64,000 nt of DNA from Bacteroidota bacterium. GTDB lineage: Bacteria; Bacteroidota; Ignavibacteria; UBA10030; UBA8401. The DNA lies in the NCBI GenBank assembly GCA_008933835.1, contig WBUG01000001.1, forward strand, positions 56,423-120,422, in the 5' to 3' direction. Under the pieces are notes generated by a model. That model had not been told where the DNA came from, ran no database searches, and saw nothing but the letters and a program-made list of their open reading frames with translations. Shown in pieces: positions 39,800 to 64,000 of the stretch (position 1 is the stretch's first letter; every line of letters starts with the position of its first letter). Position numbers and translations under genes: made by a program.

Positions 39800-39854
39800 A
39801 ACAAGCAAAAGGGAAAACCGCTCATTCGGTTTAGATGGAAGAAAGGAAGACGTC

Positions 39855-40912: not shown

Positions 40913-42715
40913 ATGAAGAACACGACGATGTTCTCGCGATTGGGAGCGATGATGATCATCGCCCTCCTGATCTCCTCCGTGCAGTACGGCGTCGCCGCGG
41001 GTACCACCGCCGGTACCGCCATCACGAACTCCGCCACCGTGTCCTACATGGACGGCGTGAACCTGAAGAACAAGACCTCCAACACCGTGACGATGTACGT
41101 GGGGCACAAGGTGGCGGGCGCGTTCTCCCCGGCCTCCGGCTCGACGAACACCTACGACAACGTCACGTACTACCATGCCATCAACTTCCAGAACAGCTCC
41201 AACCGGCTGACGAAGTACACCATGTCGTTCAACTCGGTGGCGGGCTACACGTTGTCCCTCATCCAAGATGACAACCAGGACGGTATCCACCAGTCCGGCG
41301 AGACGACGGTCGTGACGACCGACTCGCTCGTCATCGATGGGTCGAAGTACTACTTCATCAAGGCGGTCGTCGGCACCATCGCGAACGGCACGGCGAACGG
41401 CATCACCGTCACCTTCACCAACGCTTCCGGAGACAGCACGAACACCGTGGTGGTCAACCCGGCCGCATCGTTCAGCTACACGCTCACCTCCACCATCGTG
41501 AAGCCGGTCATCAGCTACCAGGTGAGCGGAACGGCTCCGTCGCCCCTCATCCCGGGCGCGCCGTTCGACTTCACCGTCACGCTGGACAACACCGGTACGG
41601 CGACCCCGTACAGCTATGATCTCGGTGCCTCGGATTCCTCGGTGGTTCAGATCCAGTATACAGTCCCCTCGAACTTCGAGTTCACGGGCGGTGCGTCGGG
41701 CGCCTTCACACTGAGCCCCTCCGGTTATGTGTCGTACACGTACTCGGGTGGAGTCATCACGATGCTGGTCGACACGTCGTACCTCGAACCGGCTGATGCC
41801 TCCATCAGCTTCACGCTGCCGATCCGGATCGACCAGTCCCTGAACAGCGGCACTGGTCCGGCCTCGGGTTCCTCTATTAATAGTCAGGCCGGCGACTTCT
41901 CGGTGCTGACCTACAGCAGTCCGCAGACCCAGCTCACCACCACCGCTTCCACGTCGGGAACCATCTTCACCGGCGCGACCACCGTGGCGGCGTCGAAGGG
42001 CGGCATGTGGTCCGTGACCCCGGCGAACGACAGCACGGCGGCGAACGAGACCACCGAGTACATCCTGACCCTGAAGAACATGGGGAACACCAGCGCGACC
42101 TTCACCATCACCGACACCGACAACGGCGGTAACGTGGTCGTGAACCACCTGGTGGCCGAGAGCTCGTACGGAACGGACCTGACCGGAAGCACGGCTTCTG
42201 TTGCGGCCGGTTCCACCATCCAGATCTACGTCCGTCTGACGGTCCCCGGCACCGCGGTGGCGCAGGACTCCATCAAGCGCAAGCTCGCCGTCGCCTCCGA
42301 CGCGGCCGGCACGCTGTACACCGGCGCGGTCGTCTCCGACTATGAGCACACCATCGTGACCTACGTCGTCGCGGCCTCGTTCAACATCACCCTGGCGGCG
42401 GAAAGCGTCGCAGGCATCGGCACCACCACGAATCCGGCTCCGGAAGACACGGTGACCTTCGCCCTCACGCTGCAAAACACCGGCACCACCAACATCACCA
42501 GCGTGCAGATCTCGAACCTCATCCCGGCCAACATGACGTTCCTGGCGAACGCGTATGCCGCCGGTCAGGGCATCCGGATCGACGCGGTGAACCAATCGAA
42601 CGCGAACGACGGCGACGACGCCTACTTCGACGGTTCGGCGGTGAAGACGAACAGCACCTTCAGCATCAACGCGGGCGTGACCAAGGTCCTCCGCTACAAG
42701 TGCACGGTGAACTGA
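40913..42715 (+). CDS. Secreted DUF11 Ig-like protein A, candidate major pilin
   Basis: Strong RBS AAAGGAG and signal peptide; N-terminal AGTTAGTAITNSATVSY; Ca-loop DDNQDGIHQSGE; ends in a truncated DUF11 (..LRYKCTVN*). Confidence 0.8.
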   Translation: MKNTTMFSRLGAMMIIALLISSVQYGVAAGTTAGTAITNSATVSYMDGVNLKNKTSNTVTMYVGHKVAGAFSPASGSTNTYDNVTYYHAINFQNSSNRLTKYTMSFNSVAGYTLSLIQDDNQDGIHQSGETTVVTTDSLVIDGSKYYFIKAVVGTIANGTANGITVTFTNASGDSTNTVVVNPAASFSYTLTSTIVKPVISYQVSGTAPSPLIPGAPFDFTVTLDNTGTATPYSYDLGASDSSVVQIQYTVPSNFEFTGGASGAFTLSPSGYVSYTYSGGVITMLVDTSYLEPADASISFTLPIRIDQSLNSGTGPASGSSINSQAGDFSVLTYSSPQTQLTTTASTSGTIFTGATTVAASKGGMWSVTPANDSTAANETTEYILTLKNMGNTSATFTITDTDNGGNVVVNHLVAESSYGTDLTGSTASVAAGSTIQIYVRLTVPGTAVAQDSIKRKLAVASDAAGTLYTGAVVSDYEHTIVTYVVAASFNITLAAESVAGIGTTTNPAPEDTVTFALTLQNTGTTNITSVQISNLIPANMTFLANAYAAGQGIRIDAVNQSNANDGDDAYFDGSAVKTNSTFSINAGVTKVLRYKCTVN

Positions 42716-42725
42716 CCGTCACTCA

Positions 42726-42756
42726 GGACTGGCCGGGAGTGATACCCGGTCAGCCC
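42726..42756 (+). terminator. Intercistronic hairpin after gene A (weak terminator or mRNA stabiliser)
   Basis: GGACTGGCCGGG-agtgata-CCCGGTCAGCCC with no real U-tract. Confidence 0.5.
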
Positions 42757-42776
42757 TCTATTATAGACACGACACT

Positions 42777-45700
42777 TTGAACACCATCAACAAATACGGT
42801 CTGGCGCTCCTCGGATGGATGCTGCTGCTCGCGACGACGGTCGACGCGCAGGCGATCATCAATGAGCCGAAGGAGGGGGCGAAATCCCACTTCACCAGCC
42901 AGTTCGTCGCCGGCACCGGACCGACCAACGTCCCCGTGAAGCTGCTCGTCAACGGCACGGCGGTCGATTCCGGTTCGGTCCGTTCCGACGGTGTGTTCGA
43001 GTTCATCGGCGTCACGGTCCCGCGCGGTCCGGTCACCTTCACCGTGGTCATGAAGATGCCCGGCGGCCGGCTCGTGAGCACGGTCCGCCGCATCCACATT
43101 TATGACGTGCCGGATTCCATCGCGTTCGAACTGCCGGAGAAGGACCTTCGTGCCGACGGCCGGTCGCAGCTCACCGCGAACGTGCAGCTGCTGGACAAGT
43201 GGGGCGTACGCATCGAGGACGGATACTTCCTCACCGTGGAAGCGGACAGCCTCTCGCTCGGCATGAAGGACCTCGATCCCGCCACGCCGGGCGTTCAGGC
43301 CCGTCTTGCAGGCGGTACCGTGGCGGTTCCGGTCGTTGCACCGAAGAACGCCGGTTCCTATTCCGTGAAAGTGACGGCCTCCGGCGTCGAACGGCGCTTC
43401 CACACCCAGTTCAACACCCCCATCGAGCCCCTGATGCTCGTCGGTTCGGCCGATGTGAGCGGGCGCTACCTTTCGACCTCCGGCGACCTGTCACAGCTGA
43501 AGAGCCGATCGCTGCTCGAGGACGGTTTCCACAGCGACGGCCGCCTGGCCCTCTACGGCCGCGGTACGGTCTGGGGCGATTACCTCCTCACCGCCTCGTT
43601 CGACAACACCCGCCGCCGCGACCGGCTGTTCCAGGAGGTCGATCCCGACGTTCTCTACGGCATCTACGGCGACAACAGCTCGGTGGACTACACCGCGCAG
43701 ACGAACAATCCGTTCTTCGTGAAGCTCGAACGGAACCGTTCCTATGCGCTGTTCGGCGACTTCAACACCTCGATGAACCTCAACGAACTGGCGCGGTACG
43801 ACCGCACCTTCAACGGCGCGAAGGCGCATTACGAAGGGGCCACGGAGAACGCCGATGTCTTCGTCACGTTGACGGACCGCAAGGTGTCGGTGGACGAGAT
43901 CCGCGGACAGGGCATCTCCGGATACTACTTCCTCGGCCGCAGCGACGTGGTGACGGGAACGGAGAAGGTCCGCATCGAAGTGCGCGACAAGCGGCACAGC
44001 CAGATCATCCTCTCCCGCGCGGAGAAGTCCCGCTTCAGCGACTATGAGATCGATTATGAACAGGGGACCCTCTTCTTCAAGCAGCCGGTTCCGAGCGTCG
44101 ACAGCGACGGCAACCCGGTCTTCATCATCGTCACCTACGAGGCGGTCTCTTCCAATGTGGCGGACTACTCGTACGTGCTCGGCGCCCAGGGCGAGAAGGA
44201 GATCGTCTCGGGTCTGCGCATCGGCGGTACGGCGGTTCTGGACAAGTCCAACAACGACTTCACGCTCCTCGGCGGGCATGCCAAATACGCTCCGTCGACG
44301 CGATTCGGCCTCGGCGCTGAGTTCGCCCGCGGTTACGACGACCTGAACGCCGGCGGCAACGCCTGGAAGGTGGACCTGTCCGGCGAACCGGTGGAGCGTC
44401 TGCTGCTGACCTCCTACGTCCGGAAGGTCGAATCGGGCTTCATGAACCAGACGATGGGCGCGGGCGGACTGTCGGGCGAGTCGGGTTCCACCAAGTACGG
44501 CGTCGGCGGTTCGTACGACGGCATCGCCGATACGAAGCTCGCCGCCGAGTTCTACCATCAGCTGCAGCCGGTCAACGGCACGACCGCCGAGATCACGTCG
44601 GTGAAGGGGACCGCTGACCGTTCCTTCGGCAGCGTCGCCACCATCGGTGCCCGCGTGGAGAACGTGTCGTACGAGAGCGCATTGGACACGGCGGCGAAGC
44701 GTTCCACCCTCGTGGCGCTCCGCGGCACGCTGCGCCCGGCCGACCGCCTGAACATCATCACCGAGTACGAACACAGTTTCAGCTCCTCCGCGGGCGAGCA
44801 GGTGAAGCCCTCCTCCGCGACCATCGGCGCCGAGTACCGGGTCTTCAATCCCGTGCTGCTCTCCTACAACCAGAAGTTCTACGGCAACGGCGGCAGCTCT
44901 TCCGTCTTCGGCGTCAACACCGAGCTGGGCTATGGGACGACGGCGATGGGCCGGTATCAGATCGGCAACGCCATCAGCGGTCAGAGGAACCAGTACAGCA
45001 TCGGTCTGAAGAACACCCTGAAGCTGACCGACGAGCTCACTTCGAACGTGCTGGTGGAGCGGACCCGGGCGCTCGACCGGAACATCGTCGAGGCGCAGAC
45101 GCCGGACAACGACGCGGTGTCGCTCGGACTCGAGTACCTTCCGAAGGCCGCCTATAAGGCTTCGGTGAAGGGTGAGATCGGAAAGAACCGCCAGGCGCTG
45201 CGCCGTTCGTTCACCTTCGGCGGGGACCTGCGCATCGCGAACGACTTTACATTAATCGACAAATTCACGTATTATGATGAGGCCCGCGAAGTGCCGCAGA
45301 GCACCGCGGCGACCTTCGCCGACGGCACGCTGTCGCCGGAACAGATCGGAACGGGTCTTGCGAACGGGACGATGAAGAAGTTGCACAACGCTCTCGGCCT
45401 GGCGTACCGTCCGGTGGACGTCGACTGGCTGAACGCCATCGGCAAGTACGAGAAGAAGGTGGAGTACAACGGCATGGTGCAGCCGCAGTCGTCCTACAAT
45501 ACGGACATCGTGTCGCTGCATACGTTCATCGAGCCGGTCATCGGTCTTGAGATCGGCACGAAGTACGCCCTGAAGATGTCGTCGGAAGAGGCGTACGGAC
45601 TGACCGCCGCCACGGTGGCCGATTTTTACCTGGTCCGCGCCGAGTACGACCTGCGCTGGAACAATTTCGATGTCGCGGCCGAATTCCGCGTCCTCTCCAG

Positions 45701-45917
45701 CCGCATCGAGGGGCAGGCAGGTTCCGGCAGTGCGCGGAGCGGGTACAGCGCCGAGCTCGGGTACGTGGCGTTCCAGAACGTCCATGTCGGGGTCGGCTAC
45801 AACTTCGTCGGCACCGAGGACCGCGACCTGGTCGGCCGCGAGTACTGGTCCGCCGGCCCGTACGTCACCTTCCGGATGAAGTTCACCGAAAAGGTGCTGG
45901 AGTATTTCAACAAGTGA
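42777..45917 (+). CDS. Large outer-membrane beta-barrel protein with N-terminal Ig-like domains, candidate usher/secretion pore
   Basis: TTG start, signal peptide, about 210 aa of Ig-like domains, then many amphipathic strands ending VGVGYNFVG..GPYVTFRMKF. Confidence 0.75.
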   Translation: MNTINKYGLALLGWMLLLATTVDAQAIINEPKEGAKSHFTSQFVAGTGPTNVPVKLLVNGTAVDSGSVRSDGVFEFIGVTVPRGPVTFTVVMKMPGGRLVSTVRRIHIYDVPDSIAFELPEKDLRADGRSQLTANVQLLDKWGVRIEDGYFLTVEADSLSLGMKDLDPATPGVQARLAGGTVAVPVVAPKNAGSYSVKVTASGVERRFHTQFNTPIEPLMLVGSADVSGRYLSTSGDLSQLKSRSLLEDGFHSDGRLALYGRGTVWGDYLLTASFDNTRRRDRLFQEVDPDVLYGIYGDNSSVDYTAQTNNPFFVKLERNRSYALFGDFNTSMNLNELARYDRTFNGAKAHYEGATENADVFVTLTDRKVSVDEIRGQGISGYYFLGRSDVVTGTEKVRIEVRDKRHSQIILSRAEKSRFSDYEIDYEQGTLFFKQPVPSVDSDGNPVFIIVTYEAVSSNVADYSYVLGAQGEKEIVSGLRIGGTAVLDKSNNDFTLLGGHAKYAPSTRFGLGAEFARGYDDLNAGGNAWKVDLSGEPVERLLLTSYVRKVESGFMNQTMGAGGLSGESGSTKYGVGGSYDGIADTKLAAEFYHQLQPVNGTTAEITSVKGTADRSFGSVATIGARVENVSYESALDTAAKRSTLVALRGTLRPADRLNIITEYEHSFSSSAGEQVKPSSATIGAEYRVFNPVLLSYNQKFYGNGGSSSVFGVNTELGYGTTAMGRYQIGNAISGQRNQYSIGLKNTLKLTDELTSNVLVERTRALDRNIVEAQTPDNDAVSLGLEYLPKAAYKASVKGEIGKNRQALRRSFTFGGDLRIANDFTLIDKFTYYDEAREVPQSTAATFADGTLSPEQIGTGLANGTMKKLHNALGLAYRPVDVDWLNAIGKYEKKVEYNGMVQPQSSYNTDIVSLHTFIEPVIGLEIGTKYALKMSSEEAYGLTAATVADFYLVRAEYDLRWNNFDVAAEFRVLSSRIEGQAGSGSARSGYSAELGYVAFQNVHVGVGYNFVGTEDRDLVGREYWSAGPYVTFRMKFTEKVLEYFNK

Positions 45918-45939
45918 TGAACAGCGACCGAACGAACCC

Positions 45940-48900
45940 ATGAAGAGCACACGCCATCATATCGTACGGAGAACGGCCATCGCCGCAATGACGGTCCTGA
46001 CCGTCGTTCTGCCGTCGCTGCTTCGGGCCCAGACGCTCGCCAATTACTCCGTGAGCCGCACCACCGGCATCTCGTACATCGGCATCAATTCCACCGGGAA
46101 CTCGTTCCCGTCCTGGCGGAACAGCACGGACGGGAACTACAACGAGGACGATAACCGGAGCTATCCGGTCGACATCGGTTTCGATTTCTGGTACAACGGC
46201 GTGCGGTACACGCAGTTCTCCGTCTCCACGAACGGGTTCATGGACCTTTCCCCCTCAACGGACGACGGCGGTCCGCTGGTGCATGCGTACGGACCGTACG
46301 ACGACGACATGAGCGAGGACAACACGTCGGAGAACACCACGCTCGCCATCGCCCCGTTCTATTACGATCTGACGACGTACGGTGTGGTCGATCCGCTCGG
46401 CGAAAGCATCCATTACGAAGTCTCCGGAACGGTCGGGAACCGTGTGCTGACCGTGGAGTGGTACCGCATGGAGCCGTGGGTGAACGGGGGCGGGGGAGAC
46501 CCGGACTTCACGTTCCAGGTGAAGCTGTACGAATCGACCGGACAGATCGAGTTCGTGTACGGAGCGATGAACCTGAACGGGTTCGTCTTCGCCAATCAGG
46601 TGTACCAGGTGGCGAAAGGATACACGGCCGGCATGAACTCGGGGACCATCAGCGCTTCTCCGACGGCGGCGCAGCTCTTCCTGCAGCAGACACCGAACAG
46701 CACCACGTTCAGCAATGCGAACGCGTTCGGAAACGAAGCCGACGCCGCGCACAACCTCGGGACGGCACCGGCGTCGAACTCCAAGATCACCATCGCTCCG
46801 CCGGCCATGACGGCTCCGACCACGCTGACCTTCACCGCGGTCTCGCAGACCGGCATGACCCTGAACTGGACCGATGCCTCCGCGAACGAGGTCGGTTTCG
46901 TCATCTACCGCTCCGATGACGGCGGTGCAACGTACAACTTCATCACCCAGACCGCTGCCAACGCCACGTCGTATGCGGTCACAGGACTCCTGGCCGGCAC
47001 CACGTACTATTACCGTGTGTACGCGGTCAATGAAGGACGTCTGAGTTCCGCGCTCTCCGGGAACCAGGCCACGGCGGCCCCCGGGTCGCCGGTCACGATC
47101 GCCTCGGGCTCCTGGAAGAACAAGAACATCTGGTCCACCAACACCGTCCCGGGCATTTCGGACAACGCCACCATCGCCGACGGGCATGTGGTCACCATCG
47201 ACTCCCTGGTGACGGTGAACAGCATCACGGTCGGCCAGGGGACGAGCGGAACCCTGCTCATCGGCGATAATGCCACTCCGCGCACCATCACCGTCATCGG
47301 CAACATCGACGTGAAGGCGGGAGGCATCTTCCGCGTGAACGCCAACTCGAACACGTCGTCCCACTCCATCACGACGTCGGGGAACATCCTGAACGCCGGC
47401 CGGTTCGTCATGGCGACGGACGCCGACAGCCGCTGCGCCGTGACGTTCAACAAGAGCGGCACGCAGACCATCAGCGGCAACGGCGACTCGACGATGTTCC
47501 ACACCATCACCCTGAACATGGGGAGTTCCCGCACGAACGTGCTGGACGTCTTCGCCACGAACTTCAGAGCGTACGCGACCGGATTCCTGACCATCACCAA
47601 TGGAACGTTCAATCTCGCCACCGGCGCCACCGTCACGCCGTTCACGACCTCCGTCAGCGTCCCCCTCTCCGGCGGTATCCGAGTGAACCACGCCTCGGCG
47701 GTCCTGAACACGACGGGCGGGAGCACCACGGTGCTCGGCGAGTTCAAGGTGCAGGCCGGCACGGTCAACATCGGCAGCGCCGCCGATAACAACCTCATCT
47801 CGCGCGGCGGTATCTTCGAGTTCTCCGGCGGCACCACGACCGTGGCGGGACGGTTCGAACCGTTCTCGGCGTTCGACATCACCGATTTCACCATGTCCGG
47901 CGGTACGCTCATCGTGGGGGGGACCGGCAGCACGTCCACCACCTCGTCGCCGTTCACGATGTCGGTCGCCGGTTCCCGCTTCACCATGAGCGGCGGTACC
48001 ATCGTCGTCCGGCGGGAAGGGGGCGGCGGCGGGAACGACCTCGGCTTCGTCAACACCGGATACAGCAACTACAGCGTCACGGGCGGTACCGTGCAGATCG
48101 GCGACGGCTCGACACCGTCCGGACAGACGATGTCCGTGAACACCGCCATCCCGGTCTACAATTTCGTCGTCAACAGCGGAAACGCCACCGCATTGCTGGT
48201 CACGAACAATCTCACGGTCCTCAACGATGTCTCGATCACGCTGGGTACCTTGAACGCCAACGGCCGTGACATCGCGGTCGCGGGGAACTGGTCGAACAGC
48301 AACCAAACGTTCACGCCGGGTACAGGCACGGTGACGTTCAATGGGACCGGCGCGCAGAACGTCTCCCGCGCATTGGGCGAAACGTTCTACCGGTGGTCCA
48401 TCGTGAAGACGTCGGGCACCGTGAGCCTGGTGAATCCTGTCACCGTTTCCGATGCGTTTCAGTTGACATCCGGCACTCTTGCGGTCGGCACATCCTCCCT
48501 CACGCTCAACGGTACTGTCACGGGAGGCGGTACGCTCACATCCTCCGCGTCCGGAACCGTTTCCTATAACCGCAGTGCGAACTCTCAGACGGTGCTCGAG
48601 GCGAACTACGGTGATCTCAACTTTTCAAACTTCCTGAAGGACCTGCCGGCGGCGGTCATCGGGATCGCGGGCGCCTTTAATCCCGGAAATGCGAGCGGTC
48701 ATACGGTCACCGGGAACACCATCGAATACAACGGCACGGGACCGCAGAGCATCGCATCGTTCCAGTACAACGATCTTACCCTGACGAACAACAGCACGAA
48801 GACGGTGCAGTCCGGAGCGGACACGGTGCTCGGCTCGCTCACCATCAACACCAATGCGGCGCTCGTCAACAACGGCGTCACGCTGCGGGTGATGGGGAAC

Positions 48901-54825: not shown

Positions 54826-54836
54826 TCGGAGCGGTC

Positions 54837-55892: not shown

Positions 55893-55929
55893 ACAGAACA
55901 TTTCACAACAGGACTCTTCAGGGGATCGT

Positions 55930-57609
55930 ATGAATCGCATAGTATCATCCATCGCCGTCGTCATGCTGCTGGGACTGCTCGCGGCGGAGACCGCGTACGC
56001 GGTCGGAACACCGGCCGGAACCGTCATTCAGACCCGCTCCCGTATGGTGTACACCACGGCAGGAGGCGGCCAGAGCGATACGGTCTATTCGAACTACGTC
56101 AGTTTCACGGTGGCGCAGGTCGCATCGGTCAACATGACGCCCGCCAGCAACGCCTCCACCGCGAACGCGGACAGCGTTTATGTCGCCTATCCCGTCACGG
56201 TGACCAACTCCGGCAACGGTTCGGACTACTTCACCTTCTCCGCCGTCTCCTCGAAGGGGTGGAGCGTGACGTACTACTTCGATGCCAACGGGAACGGTAT
56301 CCTCGATGCCGGTGAGCTCTCCGGCGGCGCCGTCACGCAGACACCGAACTTGGCCGCTGACGCCGAGTACAAACTGATGGTCCGCATCTTCGTCCCGCGC
56401 TCCGGCGCGCTCAACGGACAGAAGGACACGACGACGGTCACGGCAAAGTCGCATTTCGATACGACCAAGTCGAACACCGCGGCGATGGTCACGACGGTCA
56501 ACACCGTCAACTTCCCGACCATCGGAACGGCGCTCACCGTGACCCCGTCTAACCCGTCGCCGGGGCAGAACGTCGTGTACTCCATGACGCTCACGAACAC
56601 CGGTGCGGTCGCAGCGACCGGCGTCACCTTCACGGACCTCATCAACACCGGCCTCTTCTCCTTCGTGAGCGCCACGACCACCCAGGGGACCTTCGACGGC
56701 GTCGCGGTGCCTGCGACGTGGACGGTCGGGACCATCAATCCGGGCGGAAGTGTGACCGTCTCCATCACGCTGCAGGTGAAACCGGCGGTCGCACTCGGCA
56801 CAACGCTGACGAACGTCATCAATGTGCACTACACCGTCGGCGGCAACACGTTCACCGTCACCACCAACAATCCGTACGCGGCGGTGGGCGTTGTCCGCGG
56901 TGTGCAGATCTCTCCGCTGAACCTCTCGGCGTCGAAAGAACCGGACGATACGCTCGTCTACGCGCTGACGGTGAAGAACACCGGGAACTCGAAGGACGTG
57001 CTCGAACTGTCGTTCAGCTCGGACAAGGGCTTCCCCTGGACGCTCTACCGTGACGTCAACGGGAACGGCGTGTACGACGGCGGCGATGTCGCCCTCACCG
57101 ATTCTCCCGGTTCCAACACCGGCGTTGACGTGGATTCGGTGGCCTCGACCGACAGCGTGAAGATCCTCGCCCGCGTCGTCGTGCCGAACACGGAGACGGA
57201 CCAGGAGCAGGACCTCACCACGGTCACCGTGAAGTCGGCGGCGGACAATGCGAAGTTCCAGAGCTCGAACCTGACCACCACGGTGAACATCGCCGCCCTC
57301 ACTCTCAGCCGTACCGTCTCCCCGTCAGGCGACCAACCTCCGGGACAGGAGATGAACTTCGAAGTGTCGTTCCAGAACAACGGCCACGGGAAGGCATACA
57401 ATGTGGTAGTGACCGAGACGGAAGGGGACAGTATGTCGTACGTCGCGAACTCCGTCACCATCAACACCGTGGCGAAGACCGATGCGGCGGACAGCGATGA
57501 GGTGACCGTCACGACGGCGGGGGGGCGTAAGGTCATCACCGTGAATCTCGGCACCGTCAACGCCCTGTCGTCGGTCGGCATCATCCGGTACCGCGCGTCC
57601 ATTCATTAA
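55930..57609 (+). CDS. Secreted DUF11 protein E (minor pilin candidate)
   Basis: Signal peptide, VGTPAGTVIQTRSRMVY, two DxNGNG Ca-loops, one complete and one truncated DUF11 (..IRYRASIH*). Confidence 0.8.
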   Translation: MNRIVSSIAVVMLLGLLAAETAYAVGTPAGTVIQTRSRMVYTTAGGGQSDTVYSNYVSFTVAQVASVNMTPASNASTANADSVYVAYPVTVTNSGNGSDYFTFSAVSSKGWSVTYYFDANGNGILDAGELSGGAVTQTPNLAADAEYKLMVRIFVPRSGALNGQKDTTTVTAKSHFDTTKSNTAAMVTTVNTVNFPTIGTALTVTPSNPSPGQNVVYSMTLTNTGAVAATGVTFTDLINTGLFSFVSATTTQGTFDGVAVPATWTVGTINPGGSVTVSITLQVKPAVALGTTLTNVINVHYTVGGNTFTVTTNNPYAAVGVVRGVQISPLNLSASKEPDDTLVYALTVKNTGNSKDVLELSFSSDKGFPWTLYRDVNGNGVYDGGDVALTDSPGSNTGVDVDSVASTDSVKILARVVVPNTETDQEQDLTTVTVKSAADNAKFQSSNLTTTVNIAALTLSRTVSPSGDQPPGQEMNFEVSFQNNGHGKAYNVVVTETEGDSMSYVANSVTINTVAKTDAADSDEVTVTTAGGRKVITVNLGTVNALSSVGIIRYRASIH

Positions 57610-57625
57610 TCGGGACAGAGACTCC

Positions 57626-59308
57626 GTGCACATCCGTTCCCTGATATCGACCTTCATCGCGGCACTGCCGTTCCTGTTCCTCGGAGCGGCCGAGACGGCG
57701 TTCGCCGCTGGAACGCCCGCCGGTACGGTCATCCAGACCCGTTCGCGGGCAGTCTATACCACCGCCGGCGGTACGGCGACGGACACCGTCTTTTCGTCGT
57801 TCGTCTCCTTCACGGTGCGGCAGGTCGGCGCCTTCAACGTTACGCCGTCCGATGACGGCCGCTCCTCGTCGAGCGACAGCGCGTCGGTGGAATATCCGGT
57901 GACGGTGACGAACTCGGGGAACGGTACGGACGCCGGAACGCTCACGGCGGTGTCGTCGCACGGCTGGACCGTGACGGTGTACCGCGACGCGAACGGAGAC
58001 GGCGTCCTCCAGCCGGCGGAGATCACGGCCGGACCGGTCTCTCAAACAGTCTCACTGCCGGCGGATGCGGCCGAACGCTTCATCGTCCGGCTGTTCGTGC
58101 CGAGGACGGAAGCGATGGACGGCCTCAAGGACACGGTCTCGTTACAGGCACGTTCGTTGTTCGATACGTCCAGACATACGACGGGACGGTACATCACGAC
58201 GGTCCGCTCGGCGGACCTTCGTTCCGTTCTCTCCGGCCTCACGGTCGACGACCCGCTTCCGTCGCCCGGTTCCACGATCATCTATACGTTCACACTGTCC
58301 AACGCCGGCTCACTTCCTGCGCAGGGGGTGACGGTCCATGACATCCTTCCCGCCGGATTGACGCTCGTTTCCGGTAGTTCCTCGCAAGGGAGTTTTACGT
58401 CGAGCTCCGCGCCGCTCGTGTGGTCCCTCGGCACCGTTGCCTCGGCCGGCACGGCGACGATCACGCTGACGGCGACCGTGAACGCATCGGTCGCTTCCGG
58501 AACGGTCATACCGAATGCGATGACGGTCTTATACACCGTCGGTTCCAATTCCTATGTCCGCACCTCCAATTCCGTGCAGGTCACGGTCGGTGGCTCGCCG
58601 TCCTACGGTGTTTCCCTCGTCCGTGAGAACAGCTCAGCGGTGAAGGAGCCGGGAGACACCGCGGTGTACCGGTATCGACTGACGAACACCGGAAATTACA
58701 GCGATGTCATCGAACTGACGCCCCTTTCGTCCCGCTCACTCGGCTGGGGATTGTACCGCGACTCGAACGGGAACGGTCTCTTCGACCCTGCCGATGCGGC
58801 GATGACGAACACGAACGGAGCGGGCGCAGCGGACACCGATTCCATCGCGGCGGGTGACAGCGTCCGGTTCTTCGCAAGGGCGATCGTCCCCCGCTCCTAC
58901 GCTGACTTGCTGACGGATACGCTCACGGTGACGGCGGTATCGTCAGGCGACGGCACGAAATCGGCAGTGCAGAACGCTCTCACCACCATCGTTGAGCCGG
59001 TCGTCGTCCTATCAAAGAGCGTGCTCCCGGCCGGAAGCCAGCCCGCCGGCGCCGTCGTCACCTACACCATAGCGTACAGCAATACCGGCAGCGTATCGGT
59101 CGCGGCCTTCACGGTCACGGACGTGACCCCGGCGTCGACCGAGTACATTCCGAACTCCGTGAAGGTGAACGGGACCGGTGTGAATGACAATACGGGGGCG
59201 TTGTCCGTGACGGAGGACCCCGATGCGAACACGGTCATCGCCGTTTCGGTCGGCGCGCTCAGCGCCGGCGGTTCCGGTTCGGTCGAATTCAAAGTGAGGA
59301 TCAAATGA
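57626..59308 (+). CDS. Secreted DUF11 protein F (paralog of E)
   Basis: GTG start, AGTPAGTVIQTRSRAVY, same domain order as E; ends ..VEFKVRIK*. Confidence 0.8.
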   Translation: MHIRSLISTFIAALPFLFLGAAETAFAAGTPAGTVIQTRSRAVYTTAGGTATDTVFSSFVSFTVRQVGAFNVTPSDDGRSSSSDSASVEYPVTVTNSGNGTDAGTLTAVSSHGWTVTVYRDANGDGVLQPAEITAGPVSQTVSLPADAAERFIVRLFVPRTEAMDGLKDTVSLQARSLFDTSRHTTGRYITTVRSADLRSVLSGLTVDDPLPSPGSTIIYTFTLSNAGSLPAQGVTVHDILPAGLTLVSGSSSQGSFTSSSAPLVWSLGTVASAGTATITLTATVNASVASGTVIPNAMTVLYTVGSNSYVRTSNSVQVTVGGSPSYGVSLVRENSSAVKEPGDTAVYRYRLTNTGNYSDVIELTPLSSRSLGWGLYRDSNGNGLFDPADAAMTNTNGAGAADTDSIAAGDSVRFFARAIVPRSYADLLTDTLTVTAVSSGDGTKSAVQNALTTIVEPVVVLSKSVLPAGSQPAGAVVTYTIAYSNTGSVSVAAFTVTDVTPASTEYIPNSVKVNGTGVNDNTGALSVTEDPDANTVIAVSVGALSAGGSGSVEFKVRIK

Positions 59309-62300
59309 GGACCGGCACGATGATATGCCGTACCGGTCTCTTCCGGACATTGGTCTTCGTCACGGTACTCGGTGCGGTATTCCCTGCGGCAATGACCGGG
59401 CAGACCGCCCCCGGGACCGAAGTGCGGAACCAGGCGCGCGGCCTGTACCAATACCGTTCCTTCCCGCAGGATACGGCGCGTTCCAATCCGGTTCAGTTCA
59501 CCGTGCTGGCGGCTCCGAACTTCAGCATCTCGTTCGGCGCACGCGACACCATGGTCTTCGGGAAGGAGACGCTCCAGGTCCGTCTCGTCTATACGAACAT
59601 CGGCAATCAGACGGCGGACAGCGCCGTTGTGACCGGTGTTCTTCCTCCCGCGGGATTGTCGTTCGTCCCCGGCTCGACGGGCGGTTCCGTCTCCGGGAAC
59701 ACGGTCACGTGGCGCGTGAAGAACATCGCGGCGGGACAGAGCGATTCGGTGGGGGTGAAGGTGGTGGTGGACAGCACCCTCCTCGCCAACACCCAGCTGC
59801 AGGTGGAGGGAAACATCGAGTGGCTCTCCACGTCGACGAACGCGCTCACAACGTTCGTCGTGTCGAGCTTCCCGCGGCTCGATCTGAGCATCGTTCCGAA
59901 CGCATCCTTTGTCGGCTCCGGCCGCACCATCGTGCACCAGCTCGTCGTCCGGAATTCCGGCAACCTCGCGGCCGCCGGTGTCACGGTGATGGACACCCTG
60001 TCAGCGGACGCTTCCTACGTCAGCGCCTCACCGGTGCCGGACAGCATCCGGGCGGGAGGAAAGGTGCTCGTGTGGAAACTCGGCACGCTCGGTGCATTCC
60101 AGCAGACGGTCATCACGCTCACCGAATCCACCCCCCCGAACCTGGCATCCGGTACGGTGCGTAATTCGGCGACGGCGTTCGCCTCGAACATCGCCGCGTC
60201 GGCTGCCGCGACCTCCGTCGTGCCCATCCTTCCGGTCGCGCCGAAGAGCATCCAGATCTCGGCGGTTCCGCCCTACATCTTCGGACAGCTCGGGCTCGAC
60301 AGTGCGCTCGTCACAGTCCGATTGAAGGATTCGCTGGCCCAGTCCCTGCCGGACGGCGTGCCGGTGCAGTTCACCACCGCACGCGGTTCGTTCAGCAACG
60401 GCGCGAAGTCCCGGACCGTCACGCTGCAGAACGGCTCCGCGTCGCTCTACCTGCGTCCGGAGAACGTCACAAACGACATCATACGCACGGCGGTGACCGC
60501 CGTGGGCGGCGCGGCCGCGTCGGGCACCGTCACCGACTCCGCCGAGGTGCTCATCTATCCCGGTGCGGTGGGCGGTACGGTGGTCAACGGTCTGGACCGT
60601 GTTCCGTTCGCCGGCGCCATCGCGCGGGTCTACAATCAGACGTCGGCCGTCGTCGGGGCCGACACCACCGGAACGGACGGGAAGTTCTTCGTTCCGTTGA
60701 ACAAGGACGTCTCCGCGTACCGTCTGGAGATCTTTGTCGTCGACAAGTTCGGCGATACGGTCATCACGAACGCGGCCATCGATCCGACGCAGTTCCCCAA
60801 ACCGCCCATCCAGATCCCGAACACCATCTCCGGCCGCATCCAGTACCGAGTGTCGGGGCTTCCGGTCCCCGCGGAAGGTATCACCGTGTTCCTCGATTCC
60901 GTTTCTACGGCGGGCGGCAGGACGGCGCGGCGGGCCGGTCAGCGGAATCTCCCTGCCGGTGTCTACGCCCGAGTGCAGGAACAGCAGACCGACGCGCTCG
61001 GCCGATTCAAATTCGAGAACCTGAGACCGGCGCGGTACATCGTCTCGGTGGACAGCACGCAGTTCCCCAGCTATAAGGGATACAGTTTCGTCTCCGACAC
61101 GGTGTCGGGCACGTTCACCATCAATCTCAGCATCGAGATCGAGCAGGATTCGACCGTGACCTTCTCGGTCACCGGTCCGTCCGCCGCCTCCGCGGGCGAC
61201 ACGGTGCGCTACACCGTCGGCTATACGGCCTCCGGGAATCTCAACCATTACAACGTCACGGTCACCGACACGCTGCCTCCCTTTACGTCGTTCGTCAGCG
61301 CTGAGCAGGGGGCGTTCAAGAGCGTGGCGTACGATTCGTCGTCGCGGGTGGTCCGCTGGGCTGCCGATTCCATCGTCGCATTGCAGAGCGATTCGGTGCG
61401 TCTTGCCCTCAAGATCGCCGGGAACATACCGGACAGCACGCGGCTTCGCGCCACGGCGTGGTTCAATTCGACCGTCCGGCCGTCGTTCGGCGCGACCGCG
61501 GTGACCACCGTCCGGTCGCTCGGCACGCTCGCGTTCGGGAACGTCTTCCAGCGCGATTCCATCATCGCCGGGGACAGTCTGTCGAAACGGCTCTGGTTCG
61601 TCAACACCGGCACCGACAGCCTCAAGAACCTTGTCATCGTCGATTCGCTCTTCTCGGGCGGCGGGAGCCGCATCGCGCTCTCCAAGTCGATGGCGGACAG
61701 CGTCGCGGTCGCGGACAGCATCATCACCGTCTCGGTCGGCGCGCTGGCGCCGGGGGAGGGGGACACCCTCACGTTCACGCTTTATACGGATTTCACTCTC
61801 CCGCCAGGGACCAGGATCCGGTCGAACGCTCATGTGATGCAGGGAGCGACCATTCTGACGAGCCTTTCCGCCTCCGTCACGATGGTGGAGAACAGCGCCA
61901 TCGCGGGATACCTGAAAGTGACGAAGACCGCGAACAAGAAGTCGGCGGAGATCGGCGATGTCGTGACCTACCAGGTGCAGGTGAGCAACACGAGTCCCCT
62001 CCTCTTCCATACGCTGGCGGTCTATGACCTGATGCCGCATGCGTTCACCTATGTGAAGGGGTCGGCACGGTTCAACGGCCGTCCGTCGGAGCCGGTCATG
62101 AACCCGTCGCTGAACGGGATGACCTGGAACCTTCCCGATTCGCTCGATGCGGGGAAGAGCGGCATGCTGGTCTATCAGTTGGCGGTCGGCGCTGACGCGA
62201 TGGAGAGCCAGGGGATGAACACCGCCTATGCCGGGGCGACCGCCGGTGCCGGTTTCCGTCTCCTCTCGGCAGCAGCGCAATGGCAGGTGACGGTCCGTCC

Positions 62301-64000
62301 CGGCGTCTTCACGGAGAAAGGTCTCATCATCGGCAAGGTCTTCTACGACGACAACCGGAACACCTTCCAGGAACCGGGCGAGGACGGCATCAAAGGGGTG
62401 GAACTGTGGATGGAGGACGGCACGAAGATCACCACCGGCAACGACGGCAAGTACTCGCTGCCGGAGGTCCGGCCGGGACAGCATGTGATCCGGTTGAACG
62501 AACGCACGCTACCGCGCCGGTCGTCGCTGCTGCCGGGTTCCACGAAGTTCGCTGGTGATCCCGGTTCGCAGTTCGTCCGTCTCACCGAGAGCGGCATCGC
62601 GAAGGCGAACTTCTTCATCGCCCGGAACATCGCGGACACCGTCCGGCAGTCCGCCGGCAAGATGAACCGGCTCCTCACGGTGGCGCAGGCCGTGCCGAAG
62701 TACGTCTACCGCGACACCGTGCAGGACGTACGGAACGACACGGTGGACATCATCGTCTCGTTCGTCTTCTCCGGCGCGCGGTACCTGCAGACCATCGAAG
62801 CCAATCAGGTGCTTCCGTCAGCGTTCCAGATCGTCCCTGGTTCTGCGACATACAACGGCCGTAAAGTGACGCCGGTGGTCTATAACAATAATGTGCAATG
62901 GAAGCTCGGCCGGGCGCAGCTCGTCTCCGGCGGAACCCTGCGGTACAAGGCGTACATCGCTTCCATGCCGAAGCCCAACACCACGCTCCTCACCTCCACG
63001 GTCGTGAAGGTGATGACGGTCGACAGCGTCTTCGTGGAAAGCAGACCGATGGTGACCGAGAACATCGTCCGCGACGTCGAGACGAACGCCATCGAGTCAT
63101 CCGAAGTGCTCACGGCGGTCACGCCTCCGTCGCCGCTCACGCAGATGGGGGACACGGTCACCGTCAGCGAGGGGGATGAGGTCATGTTCCGTATCGCGCT
63201 CTATATCGATCCCAAGAAGGAGATCCGTTCCGTCCGGATCATCGATTCGCTCGAGACGGAGTTCTTCATCAACGAGCGCTCCTTCACCCTGAACGGCATG
63301 CCCCTCCCGTCCCGCCATCTCTCGGTCCGGGTTCGGTCGTCCGGACTCTCGGCCCGGATGCTGGTCAAGAAGGAGGAGATCGACTTCCAGCGCATCGCAA
63401 AGGTGGACATCACCGAGCTGGTGCGGAAGGGGATGAACGAGATCACGTTCACGGCGCGGCTCAATGCCGCGGTGAAGGATACGGTCTTCCGGAAGACCGT
63501 CTATGCGTCCGTGGTGAACGTGCACAATGAAGAGACCGTCACCCGCTCCAACGACCTTGCCATCGTCGTGAACGCCAGCAAGAGGGTCCCCGCCGTGGCG
63601 GTGGAGACCAACGTCATCGACCGGCCGAAGAAGCGGACCAGGATTGAAGAGAAGGTGGCGGAAGCGGTGAAACTGGTCGAAGCGCTGAATCAGACATCTA
63701 CCCGGTCGGTCGTGATGGAAGGTATCACCTTCGAGGCTGGGAAATCGCTCCTCACGGCTGATGCCAAGGTCGTTCTCGATAACATCGCTTCGTCCCTCCA
63801 GGCGAACCCCGATATCCGCATTCAGGTCAACGGCCACACGGACAATACCGGGAACGCTGCCGCGAACCGCAGGATCTCCCTCGACCGTGCCAAGGCGGTG
63901 AGGGCATACCTCATCTCGAAGGGGGTCCAATCCGACCGGTTGTTCGCACAGGGTTTCGGTCCGGACAGACCTATCGCTACGAATAAGACCGAAGAGGGGA
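59305..64000 (+). CDS. Multi-DUF11 / SdrD-B-like / OmpA-domain protein G (partial, runs off the window; >1565 aa), candidate anchor
   Basis: Absent from the ORF track because it has no stop in the window. ATGA overlap with F. Reads MRTGTMICRTGLFRTLVFVTVLGAVFPAAMTGQTAPGTEVRNQA..., IIGKVFYDDNRNTFQEPGEDGIKGV, and OmpA-like ITFEAGKS..VNGHTDNTG..NRRISLDRAKAVRAYL..GFG. Confidence 0.88.
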   Translation, partial: MRTGTMICRTGLFRTLVFVTVLGAVFPAAMTGQTAPGTEVRNQARGLYQYRSFPQDTARSNPVQFTVLAAPNFSISFGARDTMVFGKETLQVRLVYTNIGNQTADSAVVTGVLPPAGLSFVPGSTGGSVSGNTVTWRVKNIAAGQSDSVGVKVVVDSTLLANTQLQVEGNIEWLSTSTNALTTFVVSSFPRLDLSIVPNASFVGSGRTIVHQLVVRNSGNLAAAGVTVMDTLSADASYVSASPVPDSIRAGGKVLVWKLGTLGAFQQTVITLTESTPPNLASGTVRNSATAFASNIAASAAATSVVPILPVAPKSIQISAVPPYIFGQLGLDSALVTVRLKDSLAQSLPDGVPVQFTTARGSFSNGAKSRTVTLQNGSASLYLRPENVTNDIIRTAVTAVGGAAASGTVTDSAEVLIYPGAVGGTVVNGLDRVPFAGAIARVYNQTSAVVGADTTGTDGKFFVPLNKDVSAYRLEIFVVDKFGDTVITNAAIDPTQFPKPPIQIPNTISGRIQYRVSGLPVPAEGITVFLDSVSTAGGRTARRAGQRNLPAGVYARVQEQQTDALGRFKFENLRPARYIVSVDSTQFPSYKGYSFVSDTVSGTFTINLSIEIEQDSTVTFSVTGPSAASAGDTVRYTVGYTASGNLNHYNVTVTDTLPPFTSFVSAEQGAFKSVAYDSSSRVVRWAADSIVALQSDSVRLALKIAGNIPDSTRLRATAWFNSTVRPSFGATAVTTVRSLGTLAFGNVFQRDSIIAGDSLSKRLWFVNTGTDSLKNLVIVDSLFSGGGSRIALSKSMADSVAVADSIITVSVGALAPGEGDTLTFTLYTDFTLPPGTRIRSNAHVMQGATILTSLSASVTMVENSAIAGYLKVTKTANKKSAEIGDVVTYQVQVSNTSPLLFHTLAVYDLMPHAFTYVKGSARFNGRPSEPVMNPSLNGMTWNLPDSLDAGKSGMLVYQLAVGADAMESQGMNTAYAGATAGAGFRLLSAAAQWQVTVRPGVFTEKGLIIGKVFYDDNRNTFQEPGEDGIKGVELWMEDGTKITTGNDGKYSLPEVRPGQHVIRLNERTLPRRSSLLPGSTKFAGDPGSQFVRLTESGIAKANFFIARNIADTVRQSAGKMNRLLTVAQAVPKYVYRDTVQDVRNDTVDIIVSFVFSGARYLQTIEANQVLPSAFQIVPGSATYNGRKVTPVVYNNNVQWKLGRAQLVSGGTLRYKAYIASMPKPNTTLLTSTVVKVMTVDSVFVESRPMVTENIVRDVETNAIESSEVLTAVTPPSPLTQMGDTVTVSEGDEVMFRIALYIDPKKEIRSVRIIDSLETEFFINERSFTLNGMPLPSRHLSVRVRSSGLSARMLVKKEEIDFQRIAKVDITELVRKGMNEITFTARLNAAVKDTVFRKTVYASVVNVHNEETVTRSNDLAIVVNASKRVPAVAVETNVIDRPKKRTRIEEKVAEAVKLVEALNQTSTRSVVMEGITFEAGKSLLTADAKVVLDNIASSLQANPDIRIQVNGHTDNTGNAAANRRISLDRAKAVRAYLISKGVQSDRLFAQGFGPDRPIATNKTEEG

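Follow-up and report, generated by a model that had tools for sequence, protein, structure and literature searches.

The locus described here raises the question of whether a set of neighbouring genes specifies a surface fibre whose subunits are joined inside a protein domain, the start of one protein completing the unfinished end of another. The window, that is, the whole stretch of 64,000 nucleotides that was analysed, comes from a Bacteroidota bacterium of the class Ignavibacteria (contig WBUG01000001.1), and contains seven genes, A to G (Table 1), whose products all carry a signal peptide as read from their translations. A first-pass annotation made from the letters alone had proposed a candidate new pilus class with tip, shaft and anchor subunits. 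We followed up this proposal with profile searches, a survey of related loci and a comparison with described systems.

Table 1. Positions, in window coordinates, of the genes and of the parts of their products
Feature	Position (nt)	Strand	Description
Regulator	39855-40766	+	MerR-type HTH with B12-binding domains, arranged as in CarH/LitR; adjacent to A on its upstream side
A	40913-42715	+	600 aa; signal peptide; subunit with both halves (donor and acceptor)
A, N-terminal donor hairpin	~40991-41113
A, C-terminal truncated DUF11 (acceptor)	~42419-42712
B	42777-45917	+	1046 aa; putative outer-membrane barrel protein with signal peptide; N-terminal Ig-like region (weak Invasin_D3/Big_1 matches), then ~830 aa beta-barrel-like
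C (giant)	45940-54825	+	2961 aa; acceptor-only, putative tip adhesin; fn3 domain
C, truncated DUF11	~54529-54822
D	54837-55892	+	351 aa; small, acceptor-only; putative cap or assembly factor
D, truncated DUF11	~55593-55889
E	55930-57609	+	559 aa; two-unit subunit: donor hairpin, X domain, complete internal DUF11, X domain, truncated DUF11
E, donor hairpin	~55993-56124
E, truncated DUF11	~57304-57606
F	57626-59308	+	560 aa; E paralogue, layout as in E
F, donor hairpin	~57698-57829
F, acceptor	~59009-59305
G	59305 to 44 nt past window end (64000)	+	1579 aa; donor-only base; DUF11/CarboxypepD_reg/SdrD_B array
G, hairpin	~59395-59511
G, OmpA peptidoglycan-binding domain	~63727-63996

A DUF11 domain divided between two protein ends

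The DUF11 family (PF01345) is matched above its gathering score of 24.6 bits by A (26.4), D (29.4), E (66.3), F (89.7) and G (136.3), and C matches TIGR01451 at 37.6 bits in the NCBIfam scan (cut-off 24). In the acceptor proteins the C-terminal DUF11 lacks its last two strands, and in the donor proteins these two strands form a hairpin of ~40 residues placed directly after the signal-peptide cleavage site. On a 130-position model that we built from 10 complete internal domains, A, C, D, E and F end exactly after the strand at ~position 91, and the mature N-termini of A, E, F and G correspond to the missing positions, ~92-129; no donor hairpin was called at the N-terminus of C by our own HMMs. 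The Pfam profile agrees, with the C-terminal DUF11 stopping at position 85 of 114 in A and 79 of 114 in D, and the internal DUF11 of E and F extending to positions 108 and 113. When five genomes were considered, the N-termini of A, E, F and G mapped to ~85/94 to 124/129 of our model and the C-terminal domains, where detected, ended at ~87-98, so that the cut and the start meet at one place. The split reported in the first-pass annotation, with five stops at the earlier strand and four N-termini made of the missing strands, was thus recovered by both profiles, and the strand strings it quoted for A, C, D, E, F and G were all found in the translations.

The end points show no intermediate cases between terminal stops and internal bodies: when 268 DUF11 bodies reaching the last strand were considered, 159 stopped no more than 1 aa before the protein terminated and another 7 had 2-4 residues to spare, 102 were followed by at least 45 aa, and a tail of 5-44 aa was never seen. 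Complete Pfam DUF11 matches (2-114, 2-112 and 5-111 of 114) end directly before a separate Pfam SdrD_B match, indicating that the hairpins come after DUF11 bodies regardless of the next domain; by these profile coordinates the hairpin is a part of DUF11 and not of the domain after it. At a threshold of at least 5 bits, our hairpin HMM recognised 38 of the 102 segments after internal bodies and 32 of 306 control segments, and because of this low recognition the presence of a hairpin after every internal body rests partly on Pfam coordinates from few cases. A well-conserved S-N motif occupies the second strand of the hairpin.

Donor or acceptor ends were called in 6 of the 9192 ORFs of at least 120 aa in the whole genome, all six in the operon; since the HMMs were trained partly on the operon's own proteins, this count shows the lack of false positives elsewhere rather than independent detection. 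Across 80 related loci, the 616 ORFs on the strand of the barrel gene gave 101 donor and 131 acceptor calls, and the 556 ORFs on the opposite strand gave none. The ends are also conserved within families. The N-terminal hairpin is present in every one of the 116 E homologues of at least 500 aa (from 120 listed of 368 matches), and 113 of them stop at the strand; the other three are one record marked partial and two proteins ending no more than 2 residues from the strand. All 21 A homologues that were aligned, of 27 found, stop in one shared column, and the hairpin is the best-conserved stretch of the A family. As read from protein sequence, the split pattern is real and far beyond chance.

The shaft proteins are tandem duplications of a unit that runs from hairpin through X domain to truncated DUF11, a point absent from the first-pass annotation that favours the same model. 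Residues 17-236 of E align with residues 281-496 (E 3.4e-22), another protein shows the same for residues 55-320 and 321-609 (E 3.6e-17), and the N-terminal part is repeated internally in 38 of 50 proteins with both halves (E<1e-3), the duplication being weak or absent in A-type proteins. Of 24 such proteins whose internal body was called under strict criteria, 22 place the counterpart of the first hairpin residue no more than 12 aa from where that body ends, mostly at +1 to +3. Since the repeat unit runs from hairpin to truncated domain, the complete internal DUF11 would be a covalent version of the proposed junction between subunits.

Related loci, the barrel and the base

Relatives of the barrel mark 563 loci, spread over nine phyla or more. 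Acceptors were called in 62 of the 80 loci examined, donors in 55 and proteins with both halves in 45; the 18 that have no acceptor call are mostly on short contigs, with one locus (L094) giving no acceptor call despite 10 kb of upstream sequence. Where at least 8 kb of upstream sequence was available (44 loci), acceptors and donors were found in 43 each and all three classes in 28, and the survey suggested earlier therefore returned the acceptor-only, both and donor-only pattern together with the barrel across phyla. The usual gene order is tip, small cap, shaft, base and barrel, as seen in Bacteroidota, Ignavibacteriota, Marinimicrobia, Fidelibacterota, Lentisphaerota, Nitrospirota, Desulfobacterota and Krumholzibacteriota. 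Counterparts of D, 160-390 aa long, are present in most related loci, and of 19 small proteins in the 150-200 aa range, 18 can be aligned as a single family whose members comprise a signal peptide and one truncated DUF11, with no hairpin. The existence of such proteins appears hard to explain without a partner in trans.

The family of B comprises 6352 clusters at E<=1e-3. Weak generic OMP_b-brl matches were found in 4 of 24 members, Pfam searches returned neither an Usher nor an autotransporter beta-domain match in B or in the 24 relatives at E<=1, and sequence comparison found no PDB relative of the barrel family and, more generally, no solved relative. The donor-only base carries an OmpA domain, is fused to a barrel, or both: bases with a donor N-terminus fused to a barrel occur in many phyla, one family (f32) joins base, barrel and OmpA, and OmpA was present in 6 of 10 sampled unfused bases. 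In G, residues 1475-1564 match PF00691 (E 9.6e-23, 80.8 bits, gathering score 27.2), in agreement with the OmpA domain first described there, its binding to peptidoglycan being predicted. These fusions lend support to the barrel and cell-wall tether of the original model; export through the barrel we infer.

The machinery of described pili was searched for in the genome, which is 100% complete. No match was found to the usher family PF00577 (the control search was positive in E. coli), to PapD-like chaperones (PF00345/PapD_N, also absent among the operon proteins) or to sortase PF04203, and none of the seven signal peptides has a Cys-containing lipobox, which confirms the earlier statement that PapC/PapD, sortase and lipobox signatures are absent. 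Neither LPXTG nor a hydrophobic tail was found, the acceptor-type proteins ending at the beta-strand, and no FimA/Mfa family appears among the Pfam and NCBIfam matches of A to G.

Proposed assembly and competing readings

We consider the operon to be probably a new donor-hairpin pilus or adhesin system (probability about 0.58), in which a modular surface fibre or long stalked adhesin would be joined by split-DUF11 complementation and would be built at, and anchored to, a dedicated outer-membrane barrel. Every subunit is made with a Sec signal peptide, and its hairpin would insert into the truncated domain at the C-terminus of its distal neighbour, recreating the X-DUF11-X array found covalently within each shaft subunit. 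The acceptor-only C and D could be placed at the distal end only, and A, E and F, with both halves, would serve as shaft or adaptors. As G can only donate, it would end the chain at the cell, where its C-terminal OmpA domain would hold peptidoglycan in the periplasm; with this domain periplasmic, the N-terminal part of G would pass through B, comparable to the last subunit of chaperone-usher pili, which stays in the usher. Since complementation makes an incomplete fold whole, assembly could be powered by the energy of folding, with no need for ATP or a PapD-type chaperone. One might guess that the small acceptor-only protein, which is universal, caps the fibre or keeps hold of donor hairpins until they are assembled. 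Trans-complementation, polymer length, export through B and the existence of fibres are all points that we infer from sequence.

Complementation in trans may also occur without a polymer, giving one defined stalk of tip, adaptors and base, with about one copy of each, which would amount to a giant barrel-anchored adhesin made of separately exported modules. We regard this reading as unlikely. In its favour are the facts that minimal loci contain just one protein with both halves, that the window encodes three distinct ones (A, E and F), as expected of adaptors, that the bases are themselves long Ig arrays of 1100-2500 aa, and that giant single-chain DUF11 filaments such as GhlA exist, according to the available text of the report (bioRxiv 10.1101/2025.08.19.671072). 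Against it, a protein with a donor and an acceptor of one family can in principle self-polymerise, and three of four RNA-library runs showed their greatest contig depth in the bins over A, as would be expected of a major subunit, contig depth being a measure that cannot rank genes.

Rather improbable, in our view, is the absence of any complementation between proteins, in which case the C-terminal domain would be a complete fold acting as a targeting or secretion signal for B, the hairpin would be just the first element of its mature protein or would close on that protein's own C-terminal domain in cis, and the products would be separate adhesins. C-terminal Ig-like domains act as targeting or secretion signals in type IX secretion, and a secretion signal would be expected to look like what is seen here, a conserved C-terminal domain of ~95 aa in cargo whose genes lie next to that of a dedicated barrel. 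The repeat phase in tandem Ig arrays can mislead, and shaft and base hairpins, when tested, gave no sign of having co-evolved within loci (identity 0.331 within and 0.318 between loci, permutation p ~0.12, 17 non-redundant loci). However, the C- and N-terminal pieces match adjoining parts of one Pfam domain, the end of complete DUF11 before SdrD_B assigns the hairpin to DUF11, and the bases, which have the hairpin without such a C-terminal signal, are the very proteins fused to the barrel. Small proteins with only the truncated domain are kept across phyla, and closure in cis does not explain acceptor-only and donor-only proteins in a fixed order. In addition, T9SS C-terminal-domain models had no match in the NCBIfam scan of A to G, the only T9SS-named match being PorE, through the OmpA domain of G, at 68 bits against a cut-off of 600.

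A covalent lock, additional to complementation or in its place, by an intermolecular isopeptide bond between hairpin and acceptor, a naturally occurring split-domain counterpart of SpyTag/SpyCatcher that would yield a covalent pilus with no sortase involved, is very improbable: TIGR04226 (isopeptide-forming fimbrial domain) matches F 464-541 (E 4.9e-08, above cut-off) and G 871-961, and the S-N motif of the hairpin is conserved, but the first strand of the acceptor domains of A, C and D has no Lys and the hairpin of F has no Asn, and the residues needed are therefore not conserved across junctions.

Comparison with known systems and the upstream regulator

The donor-hairpin fibre proposed here resembles chaperone-usher pili, which have an acceptor-only tip adhesin, a non-extendable terminator, an operon-encoded outer-membrane barrel and no need for ATP. 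Sec-exported Ig-like subunits, an acceptor-only tip, a terminator and an operon barrel are common to both, complementation being predicted here. They differ in that usher and PapD homologues were not found here, in the donation of a two-strand, ~40-residue DUF11 hairpin instead of one strand, in subunits of at least four domains, in a base with OmpA or fused to a barrel, and in a barrel family without a PDB relative by sequence. Type V pili (FimA/Mfa1), whose donor strand is C-terminal, share with our locus the broad phylum, strand-exchange assembly (here proposed) and a tip-shaft-anchor organisation; the proteins described here lack a lipobox and match no FimA/Mfa family in Pfam, the donor is N-terminal, and the system also occurs in phyla beyond Bacteroidota. 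The accessible portions of the sources describe completion of an incomplete C-terminal Ig-like fold by the N-terminus of the next subunit in chaperone-usher pili (PMC11821415), and strand exchange with tip, shaft and anchor in the type V pili of Bacteroidota (PMC8512630).

In Pam pili of CPR bacteria, the tip PamT is a single truncated Ig domain, analogous to the acceptor-only proteins of ~160 aa found here, and a terminator inserts its N-terminus; as far as the accessible text describes them, these pili are made by cells that lack an outer membrane, are accompanied by putative chaperones, donate a linker strand and involve no barrel, DUF11 or OmpA base (PMC13278184). Serial DUF11 Ig-like domains also build the bead-on-a-string filaments of GhlA (Litorilinea) and GhpA (Aureispira), which the same preprint, in its available text, describes as single polypeptides of ~6000 residues that associate side by side (bioRxiv 10.1101/2025.08.19.671072), whereas here separate proteins, linked to one another within a domain, would make up the array. 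Filaments described as using donor-strand complementation but no PapD-type chaperone include tafi, for which a tip/adaptor/anchor logic is proposed (PMC11821415), as well as archaeal threads, cannulae and TasA; to the extent covered by these sources, all four belong to other folds and families, donate one strand only and use no outer-membrane barrel. The fused forms recall autotransporters and OmpA, since an N-terminal Ig "passenger" with a distal hairpin, followed by the barrel and, in f32, by a periplasmic OmpA domain, has a passenger-barrel topology with a cell-wall anchor; in contrast, B has no autotransporter or OmpA-barrel Pfam match over cut-off, its barrel region spans ~830 aa, and separate subunits would be added to the passenger.

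We found no description of a split-DUF11 system in the literature, and the split end domains, with one protein's start completing another's end, suggest an undescribed and widespread bacterial surface fibre encoded beside its own barrel. All elements of the first-pass model within reach of sequence tools turned out as it had predicted. The earlier designation of a candidate new pilus class is justified where the machinery and the two-strand donor are concerned and does not extend to the principle, as donor-strand complementation with one-sided tip and terminator subunits was already known.

Contigs from RNA libraries of three studies covered 28-30 of the 30 bins over positions 40001-60000, which is consistent with transcription of the operon, bearing in mind that RNA libraries can contain DNA. 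The product of the gene upstream of A matches HTH_17 (9.5e-12) and MerR_1 (4.9e-07) at residues 5-51, B12-binding_2 (6.2e-06) at residues 93-160 and, below cut-off, B12-binding (0.0019) at residues 174-272, and related type-1 loci have an ORF of ~300 aa at the equivalent place, as judged by position only. This CarH/LitR-like regulator suggests that the operon may be under B12- or light-dependent control.

Operon layout and the division of the DUF11 domain

The region forms a single co-directional operon on the plus strand, with intergenic gaps of -4 to 61 nt, and comprises a regulator and seven structural genes, A to G, the longest of which (C) encodes a giant protein of 2961 aa. All seven structural proteins have a signal-peptide-like start and none of the seven carries a lipobox. 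The regulator shows a CarH/LitR architecture, which suggests that the operon may be controlled in a light- or B12-dependent manner; ORFs of approximately 300 aa were observed at the same place, by position only, in related type-1 loci.

Genes of the operon, with window coordinates and domain matches
Gene	Position	Strand	Features
Regulator	39855-40766	+	MerR-type HTH, then B12-binding domains
A	40913-42715	+	DUF11/TIGR01451
B (barrel)	42777-45917	+	Pfam/NCBIfam: weak Invasin_D3 match in the N-terminal part only
C	45940-54825	+	DUF11/TIGR01451 and fn3 domain
D	54837-55892	+	DUF11/TIGR01451
E	55930-57609	+	DUF11/TIGR01451
F	57626-59308	+	DUF11/TIGR01451
G (base)	59305 to 44 nt past the window (1579 aa, same contig)	+	DUF11/TIGR01451; C-terminal OmpA domain

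The first-pass annotation had described C-terminal DUF11 domains lacking the last two strands (acceptors) in A, C, D, E and F, and N-terminal hairpins made of those strands (donors) in A, E, F and G, and both were confirmed by Pfam, by our own HMM and by genome-wide calls. Pfam aligned the C-terminal DUF11 of A up to position 85 of the 114-position profile and that of D up to position 79, while the internal domains of E and F aligned to positions 108 and 113. In a single-sequence search with the internal domain of F, its last 40 residues aligned to the N-terminal ends of A, E, F and G. An HMM of 130 positions, trained on 10 complete internal domains that came from five related genomes, placed these N-termini from approximately 85/94 to 124/129 and showed that the C-terminal domains, where detected, stop at approximately 87-98, so that the cut and the start adjoin within one domain. 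The hairpin lies within a few residues of the mature N-terminus.

Chance in a repeat-rich genome does not account for the split. Among the 9192 ORFs of at least 120 aa in the genome, donor or acceptor calls were restricted to A, C, D, E, F and G, and in 80 related loci the 616 ORFs on the strand of the barrel gave 101 donors and 131 acceptors, versus none among 556 ORFs on the opposite strand. The acceptor HMM was used after two rounds, since a third degraded it (106 calls), and the first donor HMM, which missed most of the distant base proteins, was iterated after reading their N-termini by eye, where several proved to carry the donor motif. DUF11 bodies, that is, domains up to the cut, ended within 1 aa of the protein end in 159 cases and with 2-4 aa left in seven; they were followed by at least 45 residues in 102 cases and by 5-44 residues in none. 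Moreover, among 120 of the 368 E matches, the hairpin was found in 116/116 homologues of at least 500 aa, 113 of which end at the same strand, and 21/21 aligned A homologues share one end column, with the hairpin as the best conserved stretch (the 27 found, excluding a near-identical sequence, a fragment of 403 aa and four of low coverage).

Two sequence results oppose the alternative that, in these tandem repeats, the family model is out of phase with the fold and the "truncated" domain is really complete. In base proteins, complete Pfam DUF11 matches (2-114, 2-112 and 5-111 of 114) stop just before a separate Pfam SdrD_B match, and in G the stretch from the DUF11 body to SdrD_B measures 44 residues, the length of a hairpin; the hairpin thus follows DUF11 bodies regardless of the next domain. 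Besides, G is ordered as hairpin, body, hairpin, body, hairpin and other domains, the hairpins outnumbering the preceding bodies by one. These arrangements argue that the hairpin is part of DUF11 rather than of the domain that follows. A Big_1 assignment considered for G residues ~305-425 was dropped, as Pfam did not confirm it.

Polarity classes, the base and the barrel

Of 24 further genomes from the family to which the window belongs, 20 have conserved the barrel protein B, and the four relatives that were read through carry the entire operon with the same termini. The same family holds a second, simpler paralogous system consisting of an acceptor-only tip, a shaft protein with both halves, a donor-only base and a barrel. 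Scanning one genome per GTDB species returned 563 loci with relatives of B, and the best 80 of these, all from metagenome-assembled genomes, belong to Bacteroidota/Ignavibacteriota/Kapaibacteria, Marinimicrobia, Fidelibacterota, Latescibacterota, Lentisphaerota, Krumholzibacteriota, Gemmatimonadota, Nitrospirota and Desulfobacterota. Acceptor-type proteins were present in 62 of the 80, donor-type proteins in 55 and a protein with both halves in 45. Where at least 8 kb were available upstream of the barrel (44 loci), acceptors were found in 43, donors in 43 and all three classes in 28; a single locus of this kind (L094) gave neither donor nor acceptor call. The survey of DUF11 clusters proposed in the first-pass annotation, which anticipated acceptor-only, both-halves and donor-only proteins together with a barrel, was positive across phyla.

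Small acceptor-only proteins of 150-200 aa were recurrent, and 18 of 19 align as one family with a signal peptide and a single truncated DUF11, without hairpin; D is their longer local counterpart in the window. The existence of these proteins and of donor-only bases cannot be explained by self-closure, in which each protein would complete its own truncated domain with its own hairpin. A test of whether the shaft and base hairpins of one locus co-evolve gave no significant result.

In related loci, the donor-only base gene lies directly upstream of the barrel, and fusions of the two also exist, in which the base leads with its C-terminus into the start of the barrel protein. One example is P0147, whose N-terminal 500 residues match G residues 419-1149; numerous proteins of 1600-2100 aa that begin with the donor motif are further examples. 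Fusions that also carry a C-terminal OmpA domain (2389-2414 aa) occur in 33 of 49 sampled genomes of family f32, and many of these genomes are single-contig. This low-G+C family (0.35-0.40; G221, G263 and G295, loci L114-L119) belongs to the same phylum as the window; its all-in-one protein is ordered as donor hairpin, Ig array, barrel and OmpA, and has as neighbours a large DUF11/SWM_repeat protein and another, of 885-912 aa, that carries both halves. OmpA was also detected in 6/10 sampled unfused bases, as in G; unfused bases and barrel fusions both support the proposed tie of a donor-only G to the cell wall through OmpA. The OmpA domain acts in the periplasm, which places the C-terminus of the base there; if the fibre lies outside the cell, the base would have to traverse the barrel with its hairpin distal.

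The barrel family is large: a set of 1.84 billion representatives contains 6352 of its clusters at E<=1e-3, and 2546 at the stricter E<=1e-30. Relatives of B gave weak generic barrel matches (OMP_b-brl in 4/24), and Usher did not match B or any of 24 relatives. In searches against the PDB, the barrel profile matched only Ig-like parts of glycosidases, the A profile gave no match and the internal domain of F nothing below E 0.27. ESM Atlas searches with B returned unnamed or generically named clusters, which were not counted as evidence, and a crude count of amphipathic strands found 15 scattered segments and yields no strand number. The most conserved part of B (residues 225-480, window ~43449-44216) gave an ESM Atlas lead to a SprA_N cluster at 0.89, below the threshold of 0.9 and likewise not counted; SprA_N is the N-terminal region of the T9SS translocon.

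Duplication of shaft proteins and the proposed fibre

Shaft proteins consist of a unit of hairpin, intervening domain (X) and DUF11 body, present twice. Residues 55-320 of a type-2 shaft protein (from the mature N-terminus) match residues 321-609 (to the C-terminus) at E 3.6e-17, and in E residues 17-236 match 281-496 at E 3.4e-22. An internal repeat at E<1e-3 was detected in 38 of the 50 proteins with both halves from the 80 loci; in A-type proteins the duplication is weak or absent. In 22 of 24 proteins with an internal body under strict criteria, the equivalent of the first hairpin residue lies within 12 aa of the end of that body, mostly 1-3 residues after it. Given this phase, the complete DUF11 in mid-protein is the end of unit 1 plus the start of unit 2. 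The shaft termini are the same two pieces left unpaired, and a head-to-tail contact of two molecules would copy the junction found inside each protein, so forming an uninterrupted X-DUF11-X-DUF11 array. A 1163-aa orthologue of E (G019, L024+L025) was considered as a fusion of two subunits, which was ruled out: it is E with six Ig-like repeats of ~100 aa inserted between its two units, with the hairpin and the truncated end kept, and indicates that shaft subunits tolerate large insertions.

Altogether, the domain split, its conservation, the polarity classes with their order and a covalent internal analogue of the junction are in evidence at the level of sequence, where base, barrel and OmpA are linked both genetically and, by fusion, physically. 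Apart from the non-significant co-evolution result, every comparative sequence test run came out in support of the donor-hairpin interpretation of the first-pass annotation. Under this model, hairpins would insert in trans into truncated domains, in a chain that would run from a tip (C or a small D-type protein) through A, E and F to G; the fibre would exit via B, held back by G, and folding of the completed domains may supply the energy. The product may be a long pilus, should A homopolymerise, or else a stalk of fixed composition. We assign a probability of roughly 0.6 to this model of a split-DUF11 donor-hairpin fibre with its own barrel. An isopeptide lock at the junctions was weighed and is unlikely as a general feature.

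Chaperone-usher pili are the closest in logic, sharing with the sequence-based model a putative N-terminal donor, a putatively incomplete C-terminal Ig fold, one-sided tip and terminator subunits and a barrel in the operon. Membership tests place the window system outside chaperone-usher, type V and sortase pili. Usher, PapD_N and sortase families gave no match in the genome (100% complete by marker genes, with controls responding as expected), and the operon proteins have no LPXTG tail, FimA/Mfa family, T9SS C-terminal domain model or autotransporter domain. The earlier observation that PapC/PapD, sortase and lipobox signatures are lacking thus held, both in genome profile searches and across the seven signal peptides. 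Public labels of relatives are limited to 'hypothetical protein', 'DUF11 domain-containing protein', 'uncharacterized repeat protein (TIGR01451 family)' and 'OmpA family protein', the last being the only source name among five fused barrels (1/5).

The Pam pili of CPR bacteria differ in fold, donate a single strand and have no outer-membrane barrel, with PamT as a lone truncated Ig domain at the tip (PMC13278184); archaeal threads, cannulae, tafi (PMC11821415) and TasA are likewise donor-strand filaments of different fold that donate one strand and lack such a barrel; and DUF11 filaments are otherwise described only as giant single chains (bioRxiv 10.1101/2025.08.19.671072). Searches of open-access and bioRxiv full texts gave no account of a split-DUF11 pilus, a hairpin-donor pilus or this barrel family, and a description elsewhere is possible. 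A donor-strand-complemented fibre would be of a known kind, with parts and machinery that appear to be new.

Only a few assembly classes of diderm pili are recognised, and additions to them are rare. We suggest tentatively, at slightly under even odds, that the system is an unrecognised major class of diderm pilus: chaperone-free, with a two-strand hairpin completing a split DUF11, with a large barrel of a new family dedicated to it, through which the fibre is secreted and in which it ends, with a base that is either bound to peptidoglycan or part of the barrel protein, and with a distribution over nine or more phyla, mostly uncultured. If true, fold complementation would have been put to use independently for a third time, here by a two-strand donor stemming from DUF11, a very common and poorly understood domain, and would give a function to a large family of ~1000-residue 'hypothetical' barrels. 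Besides, a naturally split Ig domain with head-to-tail self-assembly could serve protein engineering.

Possible transcription, habitat and genomic neighbourhood

The E-F stretch was present in metagenome runs with the labels sludge, bioreactor, bioanode and wastewater, as well as in six runs recorded as RNA, and the source organism occurs in activated sludge and bioreactors, where adhesion and floc formation matter. In four RNA-library runs from three studies, contigs of at least 95% identity covered 28-30 of the 30 bins of window 40001-60000, and one RNA-library contig of 2392 nt reaches from the last part of the regulator across most of A. This coverage is only consistent with transcription of the operon, since DNA may be present in RNA libraries and genes cannot be ranked by contigs; contig depth and uncovered bins were not counted as findings. 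At window 40203-42594, word depth was highest over A in three of the four RNA-library runs (32, 16 and 10 versus mostly 0-6), which might point to A as the transcript of highest abundance, although contig depth is no basis for ranking genes.

Upstream of the operon are housekeeping genes (NuoG-like, RelA/SpoT, ribosomal S1 and a GT4 glycosyltransferase) and, shortly before it, a 779-aa ORF (window 35661-38000, +) without Pfam match at E<=0.001. Beside the operon, window 38001-40000 forms a low-G+C patch (0.447 versus ~0.63 around) carrying an MFS transporter gene on the opposite strand (ORF 38175-39491, -), which may be a separate acquisition. Just past the window end, a second MerR-HTH paralogue, in which no B12 domain was detected (L013:574-1551), heads the next cluster downstream of G. 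This cluster encodes three secreted-looking proteins of 335, 402 and 556 aa without Pfam match (L013:1562-5594 and beyond) and a 1311-aa protein whose C-terminal residues, judged by eye, may resemble a T9SS sorting domain.
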